A stretch of 64,000 nt of DNA from an uncultured Clostridia bacterium (GCA_947588355.1 CANPYI010000007.1:601-64600); one strand, 5' to 3'. Numbered from the stretch's first letter, positions 1 through 26,542 are shown. Notes: a model not told the origin generated them from the letters alone. Made by a program: numbers and translations.

Positions 1-56
1 AAGACGAAACAAAAAAAATGGAAAAAATATTGAATATCATCAGTGACAAAGCATAA
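1..56 (+). CDS. 3' end of an unidentified CDS truncated by the window edge (...DETKKMEKILNIISDKA-stop)
   Basis: Open frame from window start to TAA at 54-56, followed directly by a hairpin terminator; too short to assign. Confidence 0.25.
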   Translation, partial: DETKKMEKILNIISDKA

Positions 57-85: not shown

Positions 86-753
86 TGATCATAGTTTTTC
101 AGTTTAAGCACAGCATCTTTTTTGTTTTTGCTTGAATAAACAAAATTTCCACTCACAATTATGTCTGCACCATTTTCGACAATTTGACGAACATTCTGTT
201 CGTTGACACCTCCATCAAATTCTATCTTGAAGGCAAGATTGTTGCTTCGTCGAAATTCGTCAATTTCTTTCACCCTGTCAATCATTTCAGGCAAAGTTGT
301 TTGCCCACTTGCACCAGGCTCAACACCCATCACAAGCACCACGTCACAGCCAAACACAAACGACTTTATCTCCTTGAACGGTGTGGCTGGCTTCAAAGAA
401 ATCCCCGCCAAAGTGTGACTATCTTTGATAAATTTGAGTGCAGCAACAAGATCCTCTTTGTTTTCAAATGCTTCATAGTGCACAGTGACAATGTTTGCAC
501 CCGCCTGAATATATTTTGAAATGTCTTCACTTGGCTCATTTTGCATAAGATGGACATCAAGCATGATTACACTGCTTCTGTTTATGCTTCCGACCAAAGA
601 GTAGTCAAACGTGTTTTTCTTGACAAAATTTTCATTCATAATATCGCAATGCAAAAACTCTGCCACCCCTTGCATTGAGCGAGCATATTCCACAATGTTT
701 TGATAATCTTCAATCGGCTCGGTTGAAACAGATATGTCCACATTTTTTTTCAT
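82..753 (-). CDS. rpe: Ribulose-phosphate 3-epimerase
   Basis: 223 aa; TIM-barrel Rpe-like sequence (LHCDIMN, LDVHLM, VMGVEPGASGQ, EFDGGVN); sits beside rsgA as in many Firmicutes. Confidence 0.85.
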   Translation of the reverse strand: MKKNVDISVSTEPIEDYQNIVEYARSMQGVAEFLHCDIMNENFVKKNTFDYSLVGSINRSSVIMLDVHLMQNEPSEDISKYIQAGANIVTVHYEAFENKEDLVAALKFIKDSHTLAGISLKPATPFKEIKSFVFGCDVVLVMGVEPGASGQTTLPEMIDRVKEIDEFRRSNNLAFKIEFDGGVNEQNVRQIVENGADIIVSGNFVYSSKNKKDAVLKLKNYDQ

Positions 754-17268: not shown

Positions 17269-18600
17269 TTATTTTGTCACCGTCAAGCGATAGCAAGTTG
17301 GAGAATTTTCGTCAACGCGCACTTTTTCACTGACCTCCACACCGGCAATCACATACACCTCGTTTCCGCTTGCAAGCACCGGAATGTAGTCCCTAACGCG
17401 CACCGGGATTTTTCGGTCAATCAAAAACGACTTTAATTTTTTTGTTCCGCCGCCAAACTTTTCAAAAACATCGCCGTCTTCACGATAACGCCATTTTGCA
17501 TCTTTTGGCAATTTTCTTTGGTCAAAATAAAGAGCATTTTCTTCGCGCGGCCTTTTGGTGCTCACACGATTTATTGTCACTTTGCCAAAACCTTTTGCTT
17601 CAAATTCGCCAATTTCCAAAGATTTTGAAAGTGTTGGCTTTTCAACGTAATTGTTGACAAAAGTCAAGAAATCATATTCTTTGCTAACTGTCACATCAAA
17701 AGGCAATTTTATTTTTTTGCCATTCTCTGCAAAAGCAAGTTCTTTAATCATTTCAATATGCACGCGCTCAATATCTTTTTTAACGCCAATCAATGAAAAC
17801 ACTTGAAACAAAATCCTGCTGTAAATGGCACTACTCAAATTGAAGTAACTGCACGGCATCTGCACAACTTTGTCATCAACAATAAGCGAATTTGTGTCCA
17901 AACGCGACTTGATATAGTCGTCGTCCTCACACACTGCTTTGGCAAAATTGTTGATTGCTTCGATGGCATTTGGCCATTTTTTCAGCACTTCTTTCATGAC
18001 AACATTTCGGATAAAGTTGCGAGAATAAGAACTGTCCTTGTTGCTGGAGTCCTCCACAAAATCAATGTTGTTTAAAGATGCATAATTTTCAATTTCCTCT
18101 TTTGAAACAGGCAACATAGGTCGAATATAAATATTGTCCCGAATAGGCTCCATTCCCCTCGCGCCAGAAAGTCCGCTTCCACGGAAAATGTGCATCAAGA
18201 TTGTTTCGGCCTGATCGCTTTGATGATGCGCCAAAGCAATTTTGTCCACGATATCCTTTCGCACCAAGGCATCAAACACGCCATATCTTCCGTCACGTGC
18301 CGCCGTTTCAAGCGAAACATGACGCTCTTTGGCAAGTTTTGGAGCGTCTATACTGAACTTGTAAACATGCACGCCCATTTCTTTGCATTTTTGCACAACA
18401 AAACGCGCCTCATCATCACTCTCTTCCCTTATGCCGTGATTGATATGAATTGCCACCACGTCGATGTCAAGCACCTGCTTGTTGGCATTCAAAAAATGAA
18501 GCAAACACATACTGTCAATGCCACCGCTCACACCAACACCCACAACTTCGCCCGGCTTTATCAATTTTTTTTCTTTAACAAAATCCAATATCTTTTCCAT
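17269..18600 (-). CDS. tilS: tRNA(Ile)-lysidine synthase
   Basis: GVGVSGGIDS PP-loop, TilS-like length and C-terminal domain; start at MEKILDF behind GAGGAAA. Confidence 0.9.
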   Translation of the reverse strand: MEKILDFVKEKKLIKPGEVVGVGVSGGIDSMCLLHFLNANKQVLDIDVVAIHINHGIREESDDEARFVVQKCKEMGVHVYKFSIDAPKLAKERHVSLETAARDGRYGVFDALVRKDIVDKIALAHHQSDQAETILMHIFRGSGLSGARGMEPIRDNIYIRPMLPVSKEEIENYASLNNIDFVEDSSNKDSSYSRNFIRNVVMKEVLKKWPNAIEAINNFAKAVCEDDDYIKSRLDTNSLIVDDKVVQMPCSYFNLSSAIYSRILFQVFSLIGVKKDIERVHIEMIKELAFAENGKKIKLPFDVTVSKEYDFLTFVNNYVEKPTLSKSLEIGEFEAKGFGKVTINRVSTKRPREENALYFDQRKLPKDAKWRYREDGDVFEKFGGGTKKLKSFLIDRKIPVRVRDYIPVLASGNEVYVIAGVEVSEKVRVDENSPTCYRLTVTK

Positions 18601-18786
18601 TGCTTTCCTCAAAATTTCAATAAAAATTATACAACAATTTGCACACAAAAACAATACTATTTTCAAAAAAATAGCAAAAAATCAACTTTTTTGCTTGATT
18701 TTAAGCACTTTTTTCAAAAAAAATCGCAAAACATCTTGACAAATTTTTTTTAAGTGATAAAATTACCCTAGAAATAGGGGGATAAT

Positions 18787-19209
18787 ATGAACACAAAAGT
18801 TGAAGAAGCGAAAAAAATCAGAAATTCACTGATAAGACAAAACTTGAGATTATTTCACGAAATCCAAAGATTAACTTCCAAAGATCACAGGGTGATTGAC
18901 AAAATTGAAGAAACTCTTGGCGAAAATTACAATATGTCTTTAAAAAACAGATCAATATCTTTGGAAAATGGAATATTGTCCTTTAATGGCAAAAAAATGG
19001 ACGAAAATGCTCGAAATTTTTTGAAAAATAAAAAAGAAATCAATCAAAACACTGAAAGAGTGGACGAAGACACAAAAAAATCCAGTGAAATTTTGAAAGA
19101 TCTCAAATCAAAATTGAAAACATACCAAGAAAACAACAATAGAATTAAAGAACTTGAAAAAACAATAGCGGCAGAAAAGCCTGCCAAAATTTCAGCAAGA
19201 AATTTGTAA
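18787..19209 (+). CDS. Hypothetical coiled-coil protein (orphan; ends in the shared hairpin)
   Basis: 140 aa, Lys/Glu/Asn-rich; own TTGACA...TAAAAT promoter; inserted antiparallel between tilS and spoIIE. Confidence 0.6.
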   Translation: MNTKVEEAKKIRNSLIRQNLRLFHEIQRLTSKDHRVIDKIEETLGENYNMSLKNRSISLENGILSFNGKKMDENARNFLKNKKEINQNTERVDEDTKKSSEILKDLKSKLKTYQENNNRIKELEKTIAAEKPAKISARNL

Positions 19210-19238
19210 AAAAAGCATATCACCCGATATGCTTTTTA
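19209..19238. terminator. Shared hairpin terminator, copy T1 (GCATATC-ACCC-GATATGC)
   Basis: Stem 19215-19221/19226-19232 with flanking A and T runs; same sequence as T2-T4. Confidence 0.8.
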
Positions 19239-21530
19239 ACTTTCCAAAATCTTTACAACCAGCACCGTCATATCGTCAACCGCATAACCATTGTTGCAAG
19301 CAAGCGCACGCTGTAAAAGTTCCTCGGAAAATTCCTGAGGATTTTTTGTTTTTATAGATTTTATGCACGAAACAAGTTCGTCATCACTTTCAAAACTATC
19401 TGCAATTCCGTCAGACACCAAAATTACAAAATCTTGTGCAGAGATGACATTTTTGTTTGTGAGTGGTTTGGAATTTTCCACAATGCCGATAGGAAGCGAC
19501 CCTGTTTCCACTATTTTACACTCATCTTCACTTAAGATAAATGATTTTGGTGCAGCCATTTTAATAAAATCTGCAAGGCCGTTTCTTTCATCAATCACGC
19601 AAATGTCCATAGCACTGAAAATTTCTTCCTTGTGAAGTGCAAGCAGTTTATTTACGGTAGACAAAATAAGTTCGTTGTCAAAGCCTGCACGATAGAAGTT
19701 TTCAATAAGTGATATTGAAAGTTCGCTGGCATTTTCTGCTTTTTCGCCACTGCCCATGCCGTCACTTATCACAAACAGCAGTCTGTCGCTGTCAAGTTTG
19801 ACCACACTGTAGGTGTCACCACTGACTTTGCTGCCATTTTTTGTGTGTTGACTTACACCAAACAAGCAGTCGTATTTTGGTGCGGTGCGAAGATTAAGCA
19901 CGGTGTAGCCCGGTCGCACAGAAGAAAAACTTTCAAAAACGCTCATTTTTTTGCCACAAACTTTGCTGACAACATCGCAAATACGCAGTTTTTCCGCATC
20001 TTCGTTTCGCACAACCACTGATGTTTCCATTGTCCAAATATCCTTTTCAAAAACAACGGCGTCTATACATATTATATTGTGATAAGTCAGTTCGTCCAAA
20101 ATTTTATTTTCACGCGCCGTGTCAAAAGAAATATTTGTTTCCACTTCTTTGGAAAGTTCGCCCATAATTTTGGAAACGCCCAAAAGTTGATCGGCAATGA
20201 TGAGTTTGCTGGTGTCAACATCATGTGTCATACTGATATATTTTTTGTACTGAGCAGTCAGTGTGTTTATGCTGCCCAAAATCGCAGTTGTTTGTTTGCA
20301 ACGTGAGGTCAGATAAGACGGAATGTCCAACAGTGTTGCACGACCTTTTTCGAAAGAGATTTTTATCAGGTCATCAAACACTTTTCGCGTGCTTTCCGCG
20401 TGAGTGCGATGACAATGATTTTTTTCGGGACAAAAAGAACAAATTTTTTCGGAGATTTCCTGAAAAAGCACACCCTGAACCTCTTGCAAAGTCATGCCCG
20501 ACTTCAAAAGTCGTCTGTAAAGCAAGTTCATGTCATTGAAAATTTCACTCAAATTGCCCAAACGTTTGTGCAAGATTTCTCGATTGCGATTGACAACATT
20601 TTTCATCGCAATGCGGTCTTTTGAAAGGTTGAAAATTATGGAAACTTCCTTCATGACATTTTTTGGTAGCACAAGAAAAACAGCGCATGAAATAAGAAGC
20701 GGCAAAATTTCTATTATGCCAAACGATGTGTACAATTTGAAATAGTAGCCGATGATGATTTCTATGCACAGCAGCGAAACGACCATAAAAATGCGAAAAC
20801 GTTTTTTAAACAGCAAGCAAACAAGCGCCCAAATCAAAAATGGTGCAACAAAAATAGGGTTGTTTGTGGCAACAAGCGCGCCAATTCCGCCTATTGCCGC
20901 CACTAAAACTGTCAGAAGAGGAGTGGAACAAAATGCAAATATCAAAAGCACAAAACTCATAAAAAGTTTCAAAAAACTGAAATTTTGTATATTCAAAACC
21001 ACAAGACCGCCACAAAAAACGCCGATCACCGCAAAAAGCGAAACTGTTTCAAGAATTGTCAATTTGTTTGTAAATCCCCGAATGATAATTGCCTCAAAAA
21101 TATTCATGCACGCCAACATAAACACAACGCCCACAACAACACTGACAAGAGAAAGTATTGGCGAAAAACCATTCACGCAGTCAAATGCCACCACAGCAGT
21201 TTGGCTCAAGATGGCAAAAATTATAAATTCCCATTTTTTCATCGTTTTTTTTGCCAGAATATGTGCAAAATATGGCACAATGAGGCAAAAAACAGTCACA
21301 AGCATGCAAATAGCAAACTCCAATGTTGGCTCAAACACCACCCCTGCCAAAATATATGCCGGCACAAGCAACCAAACTTTTTGATTTGCCCACAAAAGTG
21401 CAAACAGCATTCCAAAGGCAAACGGAAAAATGACCATATTGACGCTGGCGTTGAAAAGAACAAAAAACAAGCCAAAAAACACGGCAAATTGCAAAACAAA
21501 AAGCAGATATTTGTTTATTTTCAAATTCAT
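19236..21530 (-). CDS. spoIIE: Stage II sporulation protein E (membrane PP2C phosphatase)
   Basis: About 10 N-terminal TM helices plus C-terminal PP2C domain (ISDGMGSGEKA, VLVSDGI); start at MNLKINK behind AAGAGGA. Confidence 0.88.
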   Translation of the reverse strand: MNLKINKYLLFVLQFAVFFGLFFVLFNASVNMVIFPFAFGMLFALLWANQKVWLLVPAYILAGVVFEPTLEFAICMLVTVFCLIVPYFAHILAKKTMKKWEFIIFAILSQTAVVAFDCVNGFSPILSLVSVVVGVVFMLACMNIFEAIIIRGFTNKLTILETVSLFAVIGVFCGGLVVLNIQNFSFLKLFMSFVLLIFAFCSTPLLTVLVAAIGGIGALVATNNPIFVAPFLIWALVCLLFKKRFRIFMVVSLLCIEIIIGYYFKLYTSFGIIEILPLLISCAVFLVLPKNVMKEVSIIFNLSKDRIAMKNVVNRNREILHKRLGNLSEIFNDMNLLYRRLLKSGMTLQEVQGVLFQEISEKICSFCPEKNHCHRTHAESTRKVFDDLIKISFEKGRATLLDIPSYLTSRCKQTTAILGSINTLTAQYKKYISMTHDVDTSKLIIADQLLGVSKIMGELSKEVETNISFDTARENKILDELTYHNIICIDAVVFEKDIWTMETSVVVRNEDAEKLRICDVVSKVCGKKMSVFESFSSVRPGYTVLNLRTAPKYDCLFGVSQHTKNGSKVSGDTYSVVKLDSDRLLFVISDGMGSGEKAENASELSISLIENFYRAGFDNELILSTVNKLLALHKEEIFSAMDICVIDERNGLADFIKMAAPKSFILSEDECKIVETGSLPIGIVENSKPLTNKNVISAQDFVILVSDGIADSFESDDELVSCIKSIKTKNPQEFSEELLQRALACNNGYAVDDMTVLVVKILES

Positions 21531-21625
21531 ATAAAAATCCTCTTTTTGATTGTAAAACACATTTCAAAAAGAGGAATAATCAAATTTTGTCATAAAAGGC
21601 AAAAAAATGTCACTTTTTGCATTTT

Positions 21626-22315
21626 TTAAGCAAACCGATAAAATTGCAATATGCCACAAAACAGATGATAGCAAAACTTGTGCATGTATTCTCTGTTTTG
21701 CAAAAGCAGTTCTTCATTTGGATTGGACAAAAAACCGCACTCCACCAAAATGCTAGGACACGGCGAAACGTTCAATACATAAAAATCGCCGACCTTGGAA
21801 GTGAGTTTGGCGTTATCAAAATTGTCATGCAAATTTTTTGAAACACTGTCGGCAAGCGCCTGACCACTTTCACTTCCGTCAGCATAATAAACCTGCGCAC
21901 CGCACGCCTCTGACGACGGAAAACTGTTCATGTGAATGCTGACAACAATATCTGGATTGCTGTTTTCAATCACCTGCTTGCGTTTTTCCATCTCGCTTTT
22001 CTTTTTGTTTGGCGCAAGAGGGTCATACAGCCCCGCCATACTCTCCCTTGTCATCACAACTTCAAATCCATATTGCTCGCATATGCCCGCCAACGTTTTG
22101 GCATACTCCAAATTTAAGTAACTTTCAGTTGCCTCAGTCGTCTTTCCAACCGCCCCGCCGTCCTTTCCGCCGTGCCCAGCATCAATCACAATCACATGCT
22201 CCGGCTTTGGCATAAAGGTCGGCCGAATTGCCGTGAAATACACCACCACACTTGCCAAAACAAGCAAGAAACATAAAACAATCAAAATCCACTTTCGTTT
22301 TAAAGTTAAAAACAT
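21626..22315 (-). CDS. cwlD: N-acetylmuramoyl-L-alanine amidase, CwlD-like
   Basis: 229 aa; signal-anchor then VIDAGHGGKDGGAVG, SIHMNS and LVECGFLSN amidase_3 motifs. Confidence 0.85.
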   Translation of the reverse strand: MFLTLKRKWILIVLCFLLVLASVVVYFTAIRPTFMPKPEHVIVIDAGHGGKDGGAVGKTTEATESYLNLEYAKTLAGICEQYGFEVVMTRESMAGLYDPLAPNKKKSEMEKRKQVIENSNPDIVVSIHMNSFPSSEACGAQVYYADGSESGQALADSVSKNLHDNFDNAKLTSKVGDFYVLNVSPCPSILVECGFLSNPNEELLLQNREYMHKFCYHLFCGILQFYRFA

Positions 22316-22385
22316 ATGATATTTTATGAAAATCTCACAAATTTAAGAACAAAAAGGCATTTTTATCAAATTTTTTAAAAAAGGC

Positions 22386-22412
22386 TTGACAAACGCCCCC
22401 CCGTGTTAAAAT
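22386..22412 (+). promoter_or_regulatory. Promoter of the ankyrin cassette with a C7 tract in the spacer
   Basis: TTGACA(22386-91)-15 nt including C7 (22396-22402)-TGtTAAAAT extended -10. Confidence 0.6.
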
Positions 22413-22444
22413 GACCTTGTAAACAAAATTTTTTGGAGGTATAT

Positions 22445-23449
22445 ATGAAACAAGAATTGAAAGACAGCATTTATAATCTTTTCAAACAGGCACTCTCTTT
22501 GGGAGAATTTGAACAAGCAGAGCAAATCTTAAAATCGCTTAATATAGATGATGCCATGTTAAACGCTGCAGTAGACGATCAACTGGATTTCGAATCTCCC
22601 GACATTAAAAGCATAAAATGGTTGCTTGCACACGGCGGAAACTTCAAAGATGACGCTTTATTTAAAATCGTGAGAAAAGACAGTAAAGAATTGATTGACT
22701 TGGCTTTAAAACAAGGTGTCAACATAAATGCTCAAGATGAAAATGGTCGCACGCCCTTGTTCGTTGCTGCGCTGTTTGGAAAAGCCGATATTCTTGATCT
22801 GTTACTTAAAAATGGAGCAGATCCAAATGTTAGAGACAACAGTGGCCAAACCGCGATGTTTTCTTGCGCCGCCACTTATGTTGCTTACAGCACCGAACAC
22901 GTGAAAAAGATTAAACTGCTTGCCAAAAGTGGCGCAGATGTAAATGCCAAAGATAATCAAGGCAGAACTCCAATAATGTTTGCAGACAAACATGGAGTTG
23001 AAGCATTATCTTCATTGGGCGCCGATGTAAACGCCAAAGATAATGATGGCAAAACAGCATTGCTGCATATCTTATCCACCAACGTAACCACTTCTACCAG
23101 GCAAATATTCGTGAAAGATTTCTCAGAAATAGTTCCCGCTGCAAAGATGTTGATAAAAAATGGCGCAGATGTCTTTGCAACAATAGATTGTGTGGACGAA
23201 CAAAATATCCTCTTCCAAAGAAACTTGTTTGATATTGCCAAAGACAATCATAATTTGGACGTCTTAGAAGAGATAGTTGGAAAAAATTTATATAAAAAGT
23301 TGTTTGAAGCAAGCAACCGCTTAAAATATGCTCATCAAACAGCAGAGTCTCCAACATCAAAGCTTAGTGCTACTGGAGAAAGATGTCTTGCTGTCTGCCA
23401 AGACCCGCCATCTGAACATAAAATTCAAAACAAAGATAAAACAAAATAA
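22445..23449 (+). CDS. Ankyrin-repeat protein
   Basis: At least 5 ANK repeats (GRTPLFVAALFGKADILDLLLKNGADPN, NQGRTPIMFA, GADVNAKDNDGKTALLH); ATG 22445 behind GGAGG. Confidence 0.85.
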   Translation: MKQELKDSIYNLFKQALSLGEFEQAEQILKSLNIDDAMLNAAVDDQLDFESPDIKSIKWLLAHGGNFKDDALFKIVRKDSKELIDLALKQGVNINAQDENGRTPLFVAALFGKADILDLLLKNGADPNVRDNSGQTAMFSCAATYVAYSTEHVKKIKLLAKSGADVNAKDNQGRTPIMFADKHGVEALSSLGADVNAKDNDGKTALLHILSTNVTTSTRQIFVKDFSEIVPAAKMLIKNGADVFATIDCVDEQNILFQRNLFDIAKDNHNLDVLEEIVGKNLYKKLFEASNRLKYAHQTAESPTSKLSATGERCLAVCQDPPSEHKIQNKDKTK

Positions 23450-23455
23450 AATTTT

Positions 23456-23483
23456 AAAAGCATATCACCCCGATATGCTTTTT
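23456..23483. terminator. Shared hairpin terminator, copy T2
   Basis: GCATATC-ACCCC-GATATGC + T5. Confidence 0.8.
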
Positions 23484-23500
23484 AATTGCTTTTAATTTCT

Positions 23501-23692
23501 CTACAGTCCTAACTTGACATCCAACCCGCCGTGGCCGGCATCAATAACAATCACCTTTTGCGTGTTTGGACGAAATGTCGGCTTTATGGCAGTGAAATAA
23601 ACAACGGCTGTTGCAATCGCAAGCAAAAAACAAGTCGCCAAAACAAAATATTCCTTTTTCAAAACAAAAAATCTGTGTTTTTTAGAAAACAT
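23501..23692 (-). pseudogene. Truncated 5' fragment of cwlD (copy B)
   Basis: 63 codons; ...VVYFTAIKPTFRPNTQKVIVIDAGHGG then LDVKLGL-stop; matches the cwlD N-terminus and breaks at the same point as copy C. Confidence 0.85.
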
Positions 23693-23745
23693 AAGATATT
23701 TTATTTTTCAAACATTTCACTTATAACAAAAATTTGGCACAAATG

Positions 23746-23775
23746 ATTGAAGCCCTAAATTTTTGATGATACAAT
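23746..23775 (+). promoter_or_regulatory. Promoter of the MuF-motif/DUF4926-like cassette
   Basis: TTGAAG-18 nt-TGaTACAAT extended -10. Confidence 0.5.
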
Positions 23776-23804
23776 CACCGAAAATATTATCAAAGGAGAA
23801 CATT

Positions 23805-24376
23805 ATGAATATTTTTGATTGGTTGTTTAATTGGGTCAAAAAATAATTGGTGGCTTTGGTGGGGATTTTATTCAAAAAATAAGTTTAAGCAGTTTGGATT
23901 TGGAAAAATGTAATGGAGAAGCAATATCTGATGAATTAACTAACACTTGTGAAATATGTGTCGCTTTAAACAAAACTGTTTTCAAAAGTAATAATAGTCC
24001 AACATACACACATCCCCATTGCAAATGCATTCAAATTCCAACAACTTTATCATCGCCTTCGCTCATATTTGATATGAGGAAAATAACAGATTATCTTTTT
24101 ATTGACAAAAGCAAGTCAAGAATGATAAAATCAATGGGATTTTATCCAGAAGATGCACAATTCCTATATGATTATGTATCTTTAAATGTTACAAAAGAAT
24201 TTGTAAATGGCAACTACATATTAAAGAATTTAAATAAAAATGGTCAACATTTTCAAATTAATTATAATATTAATGGTAAACGAGACCATTCAAACGAGAC
24301 TTTTCAATGCTATGCGGGTTGTATTGCATATCCAAACGGAAAAATTAAAATTGCAACACCTTTAGTAAAAATATAG
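23805..24376 (+). CDS. MuF-type zinc-motif + DUF6883-like protein, interrupted by a -1 frameshift at A6 (23838-23843)
   Basis: ATG 23805 behind AAAGGAGA stops after 13 codons; one extra A would join it to the 23831..24376 frame; CEIC..x20..HPHCKC motif; KITDYLF...GFYPED... C-terminal domain. Confidence 0.6.
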
Positions 24377-24387
24377 GAGAGATGAAC

Positions 24388-24717
24388 ATGAAACTATACG
24401 ATGATGTCAGAGTCATAAATGACAAATATGAAAACATTGGCATAAAAAAGGGCAGCCATGGTGCAATTGTTTTGGCTGAAATCCGAGGACACAGTGTGGA
24501 AGTGGAATTTTTTGATCTTCCAAAAGATGTTTTTGCTCTGCAATGCATAGACATCGAAGATTTGGAAGTGACGCATGAATCTGCGGTAACAGATGAGCAT
24601 ATTTTGGACGAACTCCCCTCACATGACAAACGATGGTGGTGCAAAGTCGAAAATGGTTACATCGTAAATTTGCTTGGTGAAAAGAAAAACAAAATGCCAT
24701 ATGATTACAATTCATAA
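24388..24717 (+). CDS. DUF4926-like small protein (candidate antidote/immunity partner)
   Basis: MKLYDDVRVINDK...GSHGAIVLAEIRGHSVEVEFFD resembles DUF4926; its AGGAGA RBS overlaps the upstream stop codon. Confidence 0.6.
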   Translation: MKLYDDVRVINDKYENIGIKKGSHGAIVLAEIRGHSVEVEFFDLPKDVFALQCIDIEDLEVTHESAVTDEHILDELPSHDKRWWCKVENGYIVNLLGEKKNKMPYDYNS

Positions 24718-24746
24718 AAAAGCATATCCCATGATATGCTTTTTTT
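24716..24746. terminator. Shared hairpin terminator, copy T3
   Basis: GCATATC-CCAT-GATATGC + T7. Confidence 0.8.
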
Positions 24747-24927
24747 ATTTCCAATACAGCCCTAACTTGACATCCAACCCACCGTGCCCAGCATCAATCA
24801 CAATAACATGCTCCGCCTTTGGCATAAATGTCGGCCGAATCGCCGTGAAATACACCACCACGCTTGCCACAACAAGCAACACACATAAAACAATCAAAAT
24901 CCACTTTTTCTTTAAGGTCAAAAACAA
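24745..24927 (-). pseudogene. Truncated 5' fragment of cwlD (copy C)
   Basis: 60 codons; MFLTLKKKWILIVLCVLLVVASVVVYFTAIRPTFMPKAEHVIVIDAGHGG then LDVKLGLYWK-stop; start codon is TTG instead of ATG. Confidence 0.9.
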
Positions 24928-25008
24928 ATGATATTTTATGAAAACAGCAGAAAAATAAGAACAAAAAGGCGTTTTTTATAAAAAATATAAAAATTTTTGA
25001 AAAAGGGC

Positions 25009-25036
25009 TTGACAAGTCCCCCCCCCGAGTTATAAT
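25009..25036 (+). promoter_or_regulatory. Promoter of the third cassette with a C9 tract in the spacer
   Basis: TTGACA(25009-14)-16 nt including C9 (25018-25026)-TATAAT(25031-36); paralogous to the 22386 promoter. Confidence 0.65.
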
Positions 25037-25069
25037 GATCGCGAAAATTGAAAATGAAGGAGAAAAATT

Positions 25070-25693
25070 ATGAAATTTGAAAACGAAATTTATATGGTTG
25101 TTAATAAAAGCAACCTTGCACAAGGTGGAACAACAAAAATAGGAGCAGACGACGACCTTCTTGAAATCGAAATCCAGAATGATTACAATATGGGACACTT
25201 CCGCACAAAATGTTCATTAAGTGACCTTATTGGGCTACTAAAAATTTGGGAATTCGACTTCAAAACTCAAACACCAAATTGTTTTTCTCGTGAACCAATA
25301 ATTATTTTAGATCCTAATGATACTGAAAATATAGCAAGACGGCAAGAAAATCAGAAAATAGATTACAGTTTAAAAAGTTCTAAAGTTGAAAAATTTTTGA
25401 GTTGCTGGGATGGCAGTATAACAATTCAATTCGGAGAACAAAAATATTTAATCGCATTTCCTGCTAAAGATTTGTCCAATGATTTTCAAAGTGTTGTAAA
25501 AGATTTAAAAGATAAATCTGTTGAATTTAAAGAAAATGTTAATCTTCGCCCCTCACTCACGATCACTGGAGATGATTGTTTTGAAAAATTTATTAATTTA
25601 TCGCTAGAAACTCAAGAAAGACTAGAGAAAAGAGTGGCTGAAAGCAAAGGCAAAAGCGGAAATAAACACAAATCCAGAGAAAAAGAAAAATAA
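25070..25693 (+). CDS. Hypothetical protein (orphan cargo of the third module)
   Basis: 207 aa, no recognisable motif, Lys-rich tail; AAGGAGA RBS. Confidence 0.6.
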   Translation: MKFENEIYMVVNKSNLAQGGTTKIGADDDLLEIEIQNDYNMGHFRTKCSLSDLIGLLKIWEFDFKTQTPNCFSREPIIILDPNDTENIARRQENQKIDYSLKSSKVEKFLSCWDGSITIQFGEQKYLIAFPAKDLSNDFQSVVKDLKDKSVEFKENVNLRPSLTITGDDCFEKFINLSLETQERLEKRVAESKGKSGNKHKSREKEK

Positions 25694-25703
25694 ATTTTCA
25701 TTT

Positions 25704-25734
25704 AAAAAAGCATATCACCCGATATGTTTTTTTT
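25704..25734. terminator. Shared hairpin terminator, copy T4 (slightly decayed)
   Basis: GCATATC-ACCC-GATATG + T8. Confidence 0.7.
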
Positions 25735-25870
25735 GTGGTCGTTACGTATAATTTTGCGTGGAGATTTGTTATGGGTGTTTTTACATGATTTGATGGCTCT
25801 GTGTAAGATTGTGGTTTGAGTTTGTTAAAAAATTTGGCGGATTTATGAAAAATGTGATAAAATGATATAT

Positions 25871-26542
25871 ATGAAAAAGATTTTGCTTGTTTTGTCATTT
25901 TTTTGCCTTGTTTTGACATTTTTTATGCCAACAAATTTTGCTTGCGCACAAGAAGACAACACATCATCAAACTATATTGTCACGGCGGACTATGCGATTG
26001 TTTTTTCGGAGGCAAATTTTGCGTCAGGAAAACTTGCCACTTTATCTCACAAACACGACGTCAAAATTTTGTTAGAAGACAACTCCCCCGTCTGCGAAAA
26101 ATACGGTGAATTTGTTTTTTATAAATTAGATTTGCAAGAAAATGATATACAAAATTCCGATTTTCAATTTGGCTACATTTTGTCTGACTTGATTGTCGAA
26201 AAAACTGCTGAGATTGTGGCATATCCAAACTTTAATGCAAGCACAAATCAAGAATGTGTGGTTTTTGCTCTGCGCGGACAAGAATATGTTGAAACAAACA
26301 ATGTTTTGCCACAAAACACAAAAATATTTCTTTATCGTGGCTTCAACAAAAAACTGAATTATACTGCCATTTGTTTTGTTGCCAACGATTCTGTTGAATA
26401 TGGATATCTCAAAACAGACTGTATCAATCCCAATGGCATAAATCCGGTTCTTATCACTTGTGTGGTTTTGATTGTGGCAATTCTTGGAATAATATTTGCG
26501 TGGATATTTATGAAAAACAAACGCGTGAAAATAAAAAAATGA
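25871..26542 (+). CDS. Secreted, C-terminally membrane-anchored hypothetical protein
   Basis: Signal peptide MKKILLVLSFFCLVLTFF..ACAQ and C-terminal TM helix + KNKRVKIKK; alternative ATG at 25862. Confidence 0.6.
   Translation: MKKILLVLSFFCLVLTFFMPTNFACAQEDNTSSNYIVTADYAIVFSEANFASGKLATLSHKHDVKILLEDNSPVCEKYGEFVFYKLDLQENDIQNSDFQFGYILSDLIVEKTAEIVAYPNFNASTNQECVVFALRGQEYVETNNVLPQNTKIFLYRGFNKKLNYTAICFVANDSVEYGYLKTDCINPNGINPVLITCVVLIVAILGIIFAWIFMKNKRVKIKK

Follow-up and report, generated by a model that had tools for sequence, protein, structure and literature searches.

Results

The cwlD locus and its repeated 5′ modules

The window analysed here, a stretch of 64,000 nt from an uncultured Clostridia bacterium, contains a cwlD-like gene for an N-acetylmuramoyl-L-alanine amidase (Table 1). 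Its reading frame is complete (229 aa) and spans the entire Amidase_3 profile (Pfam, 4.5e-42). The top NCBIfam match was spore_cwlD (1.5e-48, under the curated cut-off), and spoIIE and tilS are syntenic with cwlD, as in relatives; cwlD is likewise intact in the relatives L081, L001 and L003. The 5′ ~150 nt of the gene plus the upstream intergenic region form a repeat unit that occurs three times in the window (modules A, B and C), with start-to-start distances of 1359 nt and 1253 nt. A preliminary description of this DNA had reported three copies of the cwlD promoter and ~50 codons, with copy C about nine-tenths identical and copy B more diverged. The repeat comparison bore this out: the identity of A to C was 87% across 215 nt and 90% within the last 152 nt, and B was 63-65% identical to A or C. 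The described change of ATG to TTG at the start codon of copy C is seen in the sequence, in a fragment 90% identical to module A, and the peptides given for the three copies agree with our translations. The N-terminus of fragment B (MFSKKHRFFVLKK) resembles CwlD of another species (L001) and is unlike the resident CwlD.

Table 1. Features at and near the cwlD array (positions in the window)
Feature	Position	Strand	Evidence or composition
Single-gene unit related to the cassettes, outside the array	18667..19235	+	promoter, ORF140 and same hairpin
Promoter of this unit	18736-18763		TTGACA-16-TG-TAAAAT
ORF140	18787-19209
Hairpin of this unit	19215-19232		loop ACCC, as at 25710
cwlD-like amidase gene, functional, 229 aa	21626..22315	-	Amidase_3 profile, best NCBIfam spore_cwlD, synteny
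Putative attB-like site	22140..22195	-	cwlD homology ends here in 14/14 truncated copies
DAGHGG codons of cwlD	22167-22183	-	candidate crossover at or next to last GG (22167/22166)
Cassette 1 (presumed newest)	22167..23525	-	1359 nt, equal to repeat spacing
Module A, functional copy	22167-22444	-	repeat comparison
Bidirectional promoter region	22316-22444
Module A cargo promoter	22386..22412	+	TTGACA, 15-nt spacer with C7 tract (22396-22402), TAAAAT
Ankyrin gene, cargo of cassette 1	22445-23449	+	ankyrin match
Hairpin of cassette 1	23460-23478
Junction of cassette 1	23502-23525
Cassette 2	23526..24778	-	1253 nt
Module B	23526-23830	-	repeat comparison
Displaced cwlD 5′ fragment B	23526..23692	-	part of ORF 23501-23692, ending DAGHGG/LDVKLGL-stop
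Module B promoter	23747-23775		TTGAAG-17-TACAAT
MuF-motif protein ORF, cargo of cassette 2	23831-24376	+	phrog_1657, 2.4e-5, weak
DUF4926-like 111-aa ORF, cargo of cassette 2	24382-24717	+	1.4e-4, weak, under cut-off
Hairpin of cassette 2	24722-24739
Junction of cassette 2	24755-24778
Cassette 3 (presumed oldest)	24779..25735	-	module C, orphan ORF and hairpin
Module C	24779-25069	-	repeat comparison
Displaced cwlD 5′ fragment C	24779..24927	-	ORF 24745-24927, ending DAGHGG/LDVKLGLYWK-stop
Module C promoter	25009-25036		12/12 consensus TTGACA-16-TATAAT, C9 tract 25018-25026
Orphan 207-aa ORF, cargo of cassette 3	25070-25693	+
Hairpin of cassette 3	25710-25727
Vestigial region	25736..25861	.	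separates the array from the conserved 226-aa gene (25862-26542)

Each cassette would express its cargo from its own predicted sigma-A-type promoter within the repeated module. The promoters directly abut the cargo start codons, and the window cassettes are small (1.25-1.36 kb). Poly-C tracts lie in the promoter spacers of modules A and C; that of A reads C7 in the window and C8 in two other samples (L097 and L098), which is their only indel. As for the cargo labels proposed earlier, the ankyrin assignment stands and the MuF and DUF4926 matches are weak, but DUF6883 gave no match in the family search of the cassette 2 cargo. The window's cargo genes are not paralogues of one another, which favours the cassette reading. 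Past the hairpin of cassette 3, neither a junction nor a cwlD fragment was found. In alignments, a trace of the bidirectional promoter, similar to TTTTCATAAA / TGTGATAAAAT, survives in the vestigial region beyond it. This region probably represents the original upstream DNA of cwlD, with the first displaced 5′ end since deleted. Outside the array, the ORF140 unit is placed between spoIIE and the old spoIIE terminator/tilS; it is missing in L081 and L001, where tilS directly follows spoIIE.

All truncated copies end at one breakpoint

As had been claimed, both truncated copies in the window stop at the same codon, exactly after GAYGCNGGNCAYGGNGG (DAGHGG), and both read into a common ~24-nt junction followed by a hairpin with an A-tract, a 7-bp stem and a T-tract. 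The 25-mer GGTTGGATGTCAAGTTAGGRCTGTA has just two occurrences in the window, both on the minus strand (23502-23526 and 24755-24779; 0.00 expected in shuffles). The hairpin (GCATATC-N4/5-GATATGC; AAAAAGCATATC-loop-GATATGCTTTTT) has a GC-poor stem lengthened by A/T runs and is the sole hairpin type of the cassettes. Its folding energies lie between -12.5 and -13.6 kcal/mol (z between -4.3 and -8.9); as judged from its sequence, it is shaped like a bidirectional intrinsic terminator. It is present three times in the array, and a fourth copy, after ORF140 between spoIIE and tilS, had been missed in the preliminary description.

The same breakpoint was found in other genomes. In all 14 truncated copies, from at least nine genomes (two in the window, three in L083, two in L084 and one each in L081, L001, L085, L089, L090, L091 and L092), cwlD homology is lost directly after GGNCAYGGNGG. 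Beyond it follow, again in 14/14, four variable nucleotides and then GATGTCAAGTTAGGRCWGTA or a near variant. This junction is nearly invariant, with the neighbouring cwlD 5′ coding DNA 50-65% identical between lineages and the core genes of those lineages ~68-73% identical, and it does not stem from cwlD or the neighbouring genes. A symmetry scan around the breakpoint gave 3-7/22 matches at every centre, approximately chance, and no clear dyad.

The array is fixed within the species and variable among relatives

The window array was recovered in contigs from six other samples at 99.9-100% identity. All six are independent metagenome assemblies that agree with the window in order; L093 and L094 cover the array in full, the others in part. 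The array is thus invariant in at least six samples of the species and gives no sign of current mobility.

The preliminary description had proposed comparing this locus between relatives and searching for the junction and hairpin elsewhere. Arrays in related uncultured Clostridia do vary in cassette number and content, with one to at least three cwlD fragments, a common junction and differing cargo, and junction and hairpin recur beside cwlD 5′ fragments in at least nine other contigs. In L081, L082/83, L084 and L003 the array slot has cwlD-spoIIE-tilS on one side and a gene block (a/b-hydrolase/269-aa/226-aa) on the other, and in L003, L081, L083 and L084 the array is delimited by homologues of the 226-aa gene; the array of L085 adjoins cwlD, and that of L001 is without the hydrolase-side block. 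Cassettes measure 1.25-2.6 kb overall, with one to four genes. Among the cargo of the relatives are Cys_rich_CPCC, EamA, an mTERF-repeat protein, DUF4417, HNH, LRR and a barnase-type RNase with a putative partner (barstar-like by eye, no family match). L083 holds three fragment-bounded cassettes plus one running off the contig, and its fragments fall in two sequence clusters, in the order II, III, II. The 5′ ends of fragments match cwlD of other lineages, as fragment B of the window does with L001, and the presence of such fragments within one array suggests a horizontal origin. In L001, L084 (site 1) and L003 the junction persists, but the fragment is gone or reduced to 12-35 nt. A ~60-nt junction-spacer-hairpin block (GATGTCAAGTTAGGACAGTATATAAAACAAAAAAGCATATC) is almost identical in L083-1, L084-1 and L085, which belong to different species and carry unrelated cargo.

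In relatives the junction adjoins genes of one recombinase clade

We searched for a large serine recombinase (LSR), covering the 64-kb window of this genome. An LSR query gave no tblastn match there, and Pfam assigned the window's 30 non-ribosomal large ORFs to housekeeping families or to none, with no recombinase among them; the domain set of Resolvase, Recombinase and zinc-ribbon was likewise absent from the window and present in relatives. An ORF of L084 carries Zn_ribbon_recom (2.3e-10) and DUF4368. Its closest relatives (P0005, P0007, P0008 and P0009) are 44-50% identical in the common C-terminal part, and in P0006, a longer relative, the Resolvase domain completes the LSR set (PHROG integrase, 1e-79). 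At the loci of five of the six closest clade members, the LSR gene and the junction are convergent, with 50-130 nt separating the stop codon from the junction, and in 4/5 of these junction-linked loci a broken cwlD fragment is attached. Each LSR-bearing element is seen from one end only, at short contigs or stretch ends. Two of the junction-linked genes are damaged, by an in-frame stop (L089) and by 5′ truncation (L090). The junctions next to LSR genes continue into other terminators, not into the cassette hairpin block. Searches for the attP-like module found no circular form, empty site, phage or plasmid copy.

Discussion

A model of serial insertion into cwlD

We consider it likely that the array represents the scars of serial, LSR-catalysed insertion of small elements at an attB inside cwlD, each rebuilding the 5′ end of the gene. 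As the junction of relatives lies directly beside the genes of one LSR clade, the window array is best read as attL-type scars, and we infer that this clade was the catalyst. A dedicated clade (Resolvase + Recombinase + Zn_ribbon_recom + DUF4368) would recombine the DAGHGG site of cwlD with the attP of small elements. One attP arm would be the conserved ~24-nt junction (NNNN-GATGTCAAGTTAGGRCWGTA) and the other the element-borne cwlD promoter with the first ~50 codons; LSR-bearing elements are putative carriers of such a cwlD 5′ mimic. Integration would supply cwlD with a new promoter and 5′ end, which in the window would be the ~150 nt of module A brought by the newest cassette, and because the element brings these parts the gene would stay whole. 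The old 5′ end would be shifted upstream and joined to the junction, with the bidirectional terminator hairpin as insulator. The rebuilt cwlD would hold the target anew, so that more elements could insert and stack by arrival; the orphan-207 cassette would have come before the MuF-like/DUF4926-like pair, and the ankyrin cassette last.

Canonical LSR systems have unlike half-sites in attP and attB. At cwlD the attP-like and attB sites apparently share their left arm. This is atypical, and it counts against the LSR reading that one arm would serve, unusually, as both attP and attB.

The array had been described as integrase-less and its architecture as one without a known described counterpart. 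An integrase-less system or an undescribed mechanism finds no support: no recombinase lies in the 64-kb window, but the linkage of the relatives' junction to LSR genes makes ordinary site-specific integration the best reading. Of the proposed insertion of small circles, the geometry (junction, hairpin, cargo, bidirectional promoter, cwlD 5′ end) and the serial displacement of the old 5′ end hold, but a Campbell mechanism by plain homologous exchange is disfavoured by the one fixed breakpoint at 14 sites and the conserved non-cwlD sequence after it.

Alternative explanations

Lacking a recombinase and sharing a conserved junction-hairpin "chassis", the window cassettes are either non-autonomous or fossil. 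They would form a recombinase-less family with a conserved junction-spacer-hairpin end that was moved in trans by an LSR, and the small cassettes may themselves have moved; or full-size LSR elements inserted serially and later shrank by deletion until one or two genes were left of each, in which case the small units never moved and are inert today. The latter is possible though rather unlikely. Junction-linked LSR genes at stages of decay (the stop codon of L089, the truncation of L090), the decaying fragments and junctions of L001, L084 (site 1) and L003, and the fixed state of the window array in at least six samples all fit such a history. However, the ~60-nt block is common to recombinase-less cassettes and differs from the terminators at LSR-adjacent junctions, and separate deletions would not repeatedly regenerate the same end. 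The tightly small sizes of the cassettes, with promoters abutting the cargo start codons, also speak against deletion.

An origin by homologous recombination alone, either Campbell-style through the ~300-nt homology or by unequal crossing-over, appears improbable. This is close to the earlier integrase-less reading, and the long direct repeats (A versus C) and the recombinase-free window agree with it. Yet it would neither make 14 copies from nine or more genomes end at one point nor add a conserved non-homologous 24-nt junction that is physically linked to LSR genes, and module B would be a poor substrate at its identity to A and C. Still less credible is a single ancient tandem duplication with vertical divergence and independent cargo insertions: the arrangement is fixed within the species, but fragments within one array are closer to cwlD of other lineages than to the resident gene, fragment number (0-3) and cargo vary among related genomes, and the junction source is neither cwlD nor its neighbours. 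That the array is a collapsed or mis-joined repeat can practically be dismissed. Contigs of relatives (L001, L002 and L087) do end in or near the repeated module, but six independent assemblies agree on the order and the copies, differing by 10-37%, are readily distinguished.

Comparison with known systems

By analogy, the closest known kinds to an LSR-built cwlD array would be SCC composite islands and the tandem accretion of integrative elements. SCC elements form composite islands at rlmH (orfX) of staphylococci and are moved by the large serine recombinases CcrAB/CcrC; the arrays also include recombinase-less pseudo-SCC members, presumably mobilised in trans. As in the model for cwlD, the LSR target lies inside a conserved housekeeping gene that remains functional after insertion, elements stack in tandem (three units in the window, and in L083 three plus the one off the contig), a repeat of the target bounds each element, and some members are recombinase-less. 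In contrast, SCC inserts at the 3′ end with ~15-20 nt repeated, the cwlD elements at the 5′ end with ~300 nt; SCC measures 20-60 kb, the cwlD elements 1.25-2.6 kb with 1-4 genes. Instead of Ccr at rlmH in staphylococci, a DUF4368-type, XisF/TnpX-like LSR clade is linked to cwlD of uncultured gut Clostridia.

CIMEs are cis-mobilisable elements without an integrase, for example beside ICESt1/ICESt3 at fda, and islands in tRNA genes restore the gene end. These systems share with the cwlD array a target regenerated by site-specific insertion and a displaced gene fragment at the far end, and ICEs and CIMEs also share serial accretion with integrase-less derivatives bounded by att sites. They differ in using tyrosine recombinases, restoring 3′ ends and being large, with no single promoter-gene-terminator units. 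Integrons resemble the array in their small, mostly single-gene cassettes at one recombination site, with diverse cargo including toxin/immunity-like genes. However, the window and the called genes of L081, L082 and L083 showed no tyrosine recombinase such as IntI, and the hairpin is a 7-bp-stem intrinsic terminator and not an attC site. Integron cassettes share a Pc, whereas each cwlD cassette has its own promoter inside, and a housekeeping gene serves here as the platform, exchanging its 5′ end with each insertion.

The skin element in sigK, SPbeta in spsM and gin in gerE are serine-recombinase elements in the coding sequences of sporulation genes; they split the host gene, so that mother-cell excision is needed to rebuild it, and gin shows that gene-intervening elements can be non-phage (PMC5595907, PMC4191935, PMC5499854). 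The cwlD array would share with them the serine-recombinase targeting of a sporulation gene's coding sequence in endospore formers, but the reading frame of cwlD is uninterrupted. As every insertion would bring a new 5′ end, cwlD would never be interrupted and developmental excision would be unneeded.

Repeated cwlD 5′ ends and a common junction

In the window (GC content 31-44%), about 150 nt of the cwlD 5′ end and about 130 nt of upstream sequence are present in three copies, with start-to-start distances of 1359 and 1253 nt. The functional copy A is 87-90% identical to copy C, and copy B is 63-65% identical to A or C. Copy C starts with TTG, not ATG. Both truncated copies, B and C, break exactly after the DAGHGG codons and then continue into GTTGGATGTCAAGTTAGGRCTGTA, the junction. 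Together with the preceding G, this sequence forms a 25-mer that occurs at two sites only in the window, where 0.00 are expected by chance. At 10-21 nt past the junction lies a AAAAAGCATATC-loop-GATATGCTTTT hairpin (folding energy about -13 kcal/mol, z -4 to -9), flanked on both sides by A and T runs, the form of a predicted bidirectional intrinsic terminator. The three repeats, the DAGHGG breakpoints and the TTG start had been recognised in the preliminary description, and all were confirmed. The hairpin does recur next to the array genes, but its total is four and not three, as it is found 3′ of the ankyrin gene, the 111-aa gene, the orphan 207-aa gene and also ORF140, in the spoIIE-tilS gap.

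Features of the window and of related loci
Feature	Sequence	Position	Strand	Detail
tilS	window	17269-18666	-	
ORF140 unit	window	18667-19235		
apparent original spoIIE terminator	window	18672-18700		
spoIIE	window	19236-21560	-	
cwlD-like amidase gene	window	21626-22315	-	
cwlD 5′ copy A, functional	window	22167-22444		
cwlD 5′ copy B	window	23526-23830		
cwlD 5′ copy C	window	24779-25069		
cassette 1	window	22167-23525		ankyrin
cassette 2	window	23526-24778		MuF-motif ORF + 111-aa ORF
cassette 3	window	24779-25735		orphan-207
ankyrin-repeat ORF	window	22445-23449		
MuF-motif gene start region	window	23806-23850		
A6 run	window	23838-23843		
6-nt deletion site	window	24610-24615		compared with L086/L093
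module A promoter	window			TTGACA-15-TAAAAT
module B promoter	window			TTGAAG-17-TACAAT
module C promoter	window			TTGACA-16-TATAAT, 12/12 consensus matches
ankyrin promoter tract	window	22396-22402		C7, 15-nt spacer; same in L093, L094
ankyrin promoter tract	L097	~452-459		C8
ankyrin promoter tract	L098	~32-39		C8
module C tract	window	25018-25026		C9
module tract	L081	10683-10690		C8
promoter tracts elsewhere	L002	3547-3554, 13026-13033		two TTGACA-...G8-TACAAT
fragment + junction	L084	5333-5511		
mTERF-repeat ORF	L083	5783-7192		469 aa
genes 3′ of recombinase	L088	1460-2990		
junction-like remnant 1	L003	7995-8050		ATGTCAAGTTTAG
junction-like remnant 2	L003	8885-8935		ACTGTCAATAGCAGT
additional genes	L001	2294-3661		between cwlD and spoIIE
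diverging contig end	L087	1-29		

An assembly artefact, raised earlier as a possible cause of the repeats, is not the explanation, since contigs from six other samples (ERZ27249236, ERZ27249433, ERZ27060014, ERZ27249426, ERR10663689 and ERR10663687) match the window at 99.9-100% and reproduce the array in the same gene order: cwlD, ankyrin, fragment B, 181-aa, 111-aa, fragment C, 207-aa. Between the window and L086/L093 only three differences were seen across 7.8 kb, one of which is an in-frame 6-nt deletion in the weakly DUF4926-like 111-aa gene in one sample.

Arrays in related genomes

A scan of species-representative genomes gave CwlD relatives with 67, 57 and 55% amino-acid identity (L001, L002 and L003, respectively). 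When the protein of fragment C was used as query, other short ORFs were found that end in DAGHGG followed by LECQFG or VDVKLGQ. Their contigs (L081 and L082/L083) represent the chromosomal slot of the window, with the order transketolase, 307-aa gene, a/b hydrolase, variable region and cwlD-spoIIE-tilS; this last side was reached in L081, and L082/L083 end inside the array. Scanning metagenomes for the junction plus hairpin pattern yielded two further loci, L084 and L085. The two elements, suggested previously as a pattern to be sought beside cwlD 5′ fragments, recur there in at least nine other contigs.

Truncated cwlD 5′ ends, counted by tblastn and motif scans, number two in the window, one in L081, three in L083, two in L084 (one down to ~12 nt), one in L085 and one in L001 (down to ~35 nt). 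L003 has none, and harbours two decayed junction-like remnants instead. The breakpoint is identical in every counted copy and is followed by four variable nucleotides and then GATGTCAAGTTAGGRCWGTA or a near variant. The insertion geometry that was originally proposed is supported. The junction is almost invariant, whereas the adjacent cwlD 5′ coding sequence is 50-65% identical between clusters and the core genes of these genomes are ~68-73% identical, a contrast that points to selection acting on the junction itself.

The first L003 remnant lies with a different hairpin 3′ of an ankyrin gene, and the second, with a degenerate GCATATC/GATGTGT hairpin, 3′ of an RNase and 107-aa ORF pair. No cwlD fragment is left at either, and both are probably very old, eroded cassettes. 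In L001, two additional genes (one of 284 aa without family match, one of 164 aa that is GNAT-like by eye) separate cwlD from spoIIE, and upstream of the array remnant a C-terminal fragment of a 4-alpha-glucanotransferase replaces the hydrolase block, so the flanks of the locus are fluid too.

The cwlD 5′ modules form clusters that cut across genomes. Cluster I contains window copies A and C, both L081 copies and L001, with window copy B more distant; cluster II contains the L003 full gene, L083 fragments 1 and 3 and the L084 fragment; and cluster III contains L083 fragment 2 and the L085 full gene. The start of window fragment B, MFSKKHRFFVLKK, is like that of the L001 CwlD (MFSKKHGFFVLKK) and unlike the resident MFLTLKRKWILIV, and the L083 array alternates clusters II, III and II. 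A single array thus combines fragments of more than one lineage, and this rules out a simple duplication in place. We also considered that junction and hairpin are a relic of the spoIIE 3′ end and terminator, left by tandem duplication and internal deletion. The idea was rejected: the two have no more than the hairpin and a TTGGAAA word in common, and the hairpin at 19215 belongs to the inserted ORF140 unit, which is missing in relatives. Nor is the window cargo simply an ancestral neighbourhood shared with L003, as neither the ankyrin nor the MuF-motif proteins are orthologous: the former are 30% identical via generic repeats only, and the latter have a CxxC...HPHCxC stretch alone in common.

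A clade of large serine recombinases adjoins the junction

In L084, the 3′ end of a convergent ORF lies within ~50 nt of the fragment and junction. This ORF, which runs beyond the sequence examined, carries Zn_ribbon_recom (2.3e-10) and DUF4368 and is the C-terminal half of a large serine recombinase (LSR). A profile search recovered its clade. One member, a 461-aa protein from a Christensenellales MAG (P0006), contains Resolvase, Recombinase, zinc-ribbon and DUF4368 domains and matches a PHROG integrase (1e-79), with a weaker match to XisF. Four of the five closest relatives of the L084 LSR are arranged as in L084. In L089, the LSR stop is followed by a terminator and then, on the opposite strand, by KEHSIVIDAGHGG running into IDVNIRHKVF-stop, with the junction GATGTCAATATAAGACACAA. 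The fragments at the LSRs of L091 and L092 read VHTIVIDAGHGG followed by LDVKLGHTFF-stop and YTVVIDAGHGG followed by LDVK-stop, respectively, and L090 has the junction GATGTCTAATTAAGACTGTA, preceded by GG, at the contig end. L088 is the sole exception among the relatives looked up; downstream of its LSR come a pair of ThsB-type TIR genes, of a Thoeris-like defence kind, and a 144-aa ORF.

The same junction thus lies beside five of six members of one LSR clade, from different samples and with ~44-50% pairwise protein identity. This linkage across diverged LSRs speaks strongly for use of the cwlD site by this clade, with the junction as the putative recombinase-proximal attP arm. Two of the junction-linked copies are decaying: that of L089 has an in-frame stop, and in that of L090 all sequence preceding the middle of the recombinase domain is missing. 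The loci are partial, as the 47-kb contig ULSO01074728.1 was examined for 6296 nt, a stretch that stops halfway through the LSR gene, and the remaining LSR contigs measure 1-3 kb.

The array had been called integrase-less. This holds for the window, in which tblastn with P0006 gave no match and the Pfam matches of the 30 large ORFs lying outside the ribosomal-protein cluster, where there were any, were to housekeeping families and never to a recombinase; it does not hold for the relatives, in which we have very probably found the recombinase that is missing. A phage, plasmid or viral origin was rejected, as the LSR, the junction plus hairpin pattern and the attP-like module had no match in IMG/VR, INPHARED or PLSDB. 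Among the papers searched, none connects cwlD to a serine recombinase or to an attachment site.

Cargo genes and their promoters

The cargo varies between genomes. The window carries an ankyrin protein, a MuF-motif protein with a small partner and an orphan protein; other array-bearing loci also hold Cys_rich_CPCC, EamA, a 469-aa mTERF-repeat protein, DUF4417, HNH and LRR types. In L003 a MuF-motif barnase-type RNase gene precedes the 107-aa ORF, which is barstar-like by eye and has no family match. Taken together, these cargo genes resemble toxin/immunity genes and genes for repeat proteins (ankyrin, CPCC, MuF-motif toxin pair, RNase/barstar-like). Repeat types usual in eukaryotes are represented by the mTERF repeats of L083 (7e-38) and the ankyrin repeats of the window.

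For the MuF-motif ORF, a good ribosome-binding site accompanies an ATG at 23806, in a frame that closes after 13 codons; the long ORF lies in another frame, with a TTG start and without ribosome-binding site. One A added to the A6 run, which is found in all six samples, would join the two frames. The putative toxin gene may thus be inactivated, with the small partner gene intact.

The ORF140 unit is located beside tilS, between the spoIIE stop codon and the apparent original spoIIE terminator. It comprises a promoter (TTGACA-16-TG-TAAAAT), ORF140 (no family match) and a GCATATCACCCGATATGC hairpin as in the array. Relatives L081 and L001 have no gene at this position. As the unit has neither junction nor cwlD fragment, it arrived by another route.

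Each module carries a predicted strong sigma-A-type promoter facing the cargo. Homopolymer tracts lie within the spacers of consensus promoters, and C7 to C8 in the ankyrin promoter is the sole indel in L097 and L098, which are otherwise 100% identical. The tracts look like sites where slipped-strand events tune the promoter or cause phase variation; the length differences may instead stem from homopolymer errors at low coverage. On the cwlD side, a Shine-Dalgarno sequence is missing from the gene and all displaced copies (window 22316-22335 and the same position in every module). A conserved CATAAAATA(T/C) 4-6 nt before the start codon in all modules resembles a -10 element positioned for a leaderless transcript, possibly made from a sporulation sigma factor promoter.

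Insertion and mobility of the cassettes

We read the array as the product of site-specific tandem accretion in which a serine-recombinase site is the target, the 5′ end of the gene is replaced and the cassettes are very small and integron-like, and we consider it likely that it consists of the insertion scars of an LSR system. In the proposed mechanism, a circular element would carry an attP made up of the promoter and cwlD codons 1-50, the crossover and the 24-nt junction, and would recombine with the DAGHGG site of the chromosomal cwlD. In the attL product, the old promoter and 5′ end would be joined to the junction, followed by the terminator hairpin and the cargo on the other strand; in the attR product, the promoter and 5′ end of the element would be joined to the cwlD body, leaving the gene intact. 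As attR would hold the target again, the next element would enter there and the array would grow from the cwlD side. Past cassette 3, the first displaced cwlD 5′ end would have been lost; a vestige of the bidirectional promoter remains before a conserved 226-aa gene. The hairpin would end transcription from both sides, that of the truncated cwlD copy and that of the cargo converging on it. Compared with a textbook serine integrase it is awkward that the same left arm would serve in attP and attB. Dyad symmetry around the breakpoint of the att site was not above chance.

The small cassettes could be debris of large elements, cut down by independent deletions. However, the junction-spacer-hairpin block of ~60 nt is almost identical between cassettes with unrelated cargo in different species (L083-1, L084-1 and L085 all have GATGTCAAGTTAGGACAGTATATAAAACAAAAAAGCATATC, and the window copies are close variants), and independent deletions would not remake one identical end repeatedly. 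At the LSR-adjacent junctions other terminators come next. This common end, not seen at the LSR junctions, favours a putative family of recombinase-less cassettes that share one chassis over the debris explanation.

That members of such a family move as units in trans is conceivable, if on balance doubtful. Cassette polymorphism, proposed for checking in the preliminary description, was not seen within the species, the array being invariant in the six other samples, and searches for a circular form, an empty site in a close strain and an extrachromosomal copy found none. A 1283-nt contig of sample ERZ27060014 (L087) matches cwlD and 67 nt upstream and then diverges for 29 nt that match no other sequence compared; the contig end may be chimeric, or it may stem from a minority variant whose upstream neighbour differs.

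Rather unlikely, in our estimate, is the joint reading of the array as an LSR-based, integron-like gene-capture platform, with cassettes shuffled in trans at the cwlD target, free of a directionality factor and tuned by poly-C. A cassette would then consist of its own promoter, one to four genes, its own terminator, the 24-nt P′ arm and a cwlD 5′ mimic. The P arm of the element would copy the B arm of the host, so that attL would resemble attP and attR would resemble attB. With such sites, either reaction, insertion or excision, could proceed unaided by a directionality factor. Cargo expression would be adjusted through the poly-C tracts of the promoter spacer.

Relation to known systems and significance

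In logic, the closest analogue is the SCC composite island at rlmH, which shares the LSR, a target inside a housekeeping gene that is kept intact, tandem stacking and recombinase-less members. It differs in the gene end targeted and in recombinase clade and hosts; moreover, each cwlD element brings a promoter and 5′ module of ~300 nt, and the cwlD units are very small, like expression cassettes. The skin, SPbeta and gin intervening elements, which split their sporulation gene (PMC5595907, PMC4191935, PMC5499854), are similar in recombinase type and kind of target gene, whereas the cwlD array never interrupts its target. The likeness to integrons is limited to the look of a cassette array, as none of intI, attC and Pc, the features that define them, turned up when looked for.

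If the model is true, it would account for short "orphan" ORFs that end in DAGHGG-LDVKLG and for assembly breaks upstream of cwlD. LSRs are much wanted for genome engineering; cwlD would be a natural target new to them, and the clade itself would be new as well, with ~14 natural attL-type and four sequenced natural attB sites (intact cwlD) for site definition. Insertion at the 5′ end of a gene would be harmless, since the element brings the promoter and first 50 codons. Tandem accretion at a serine-recombinase site could then yield an integron-like store of single-gene expression cassettes, here in uncultured gut Clostridia.
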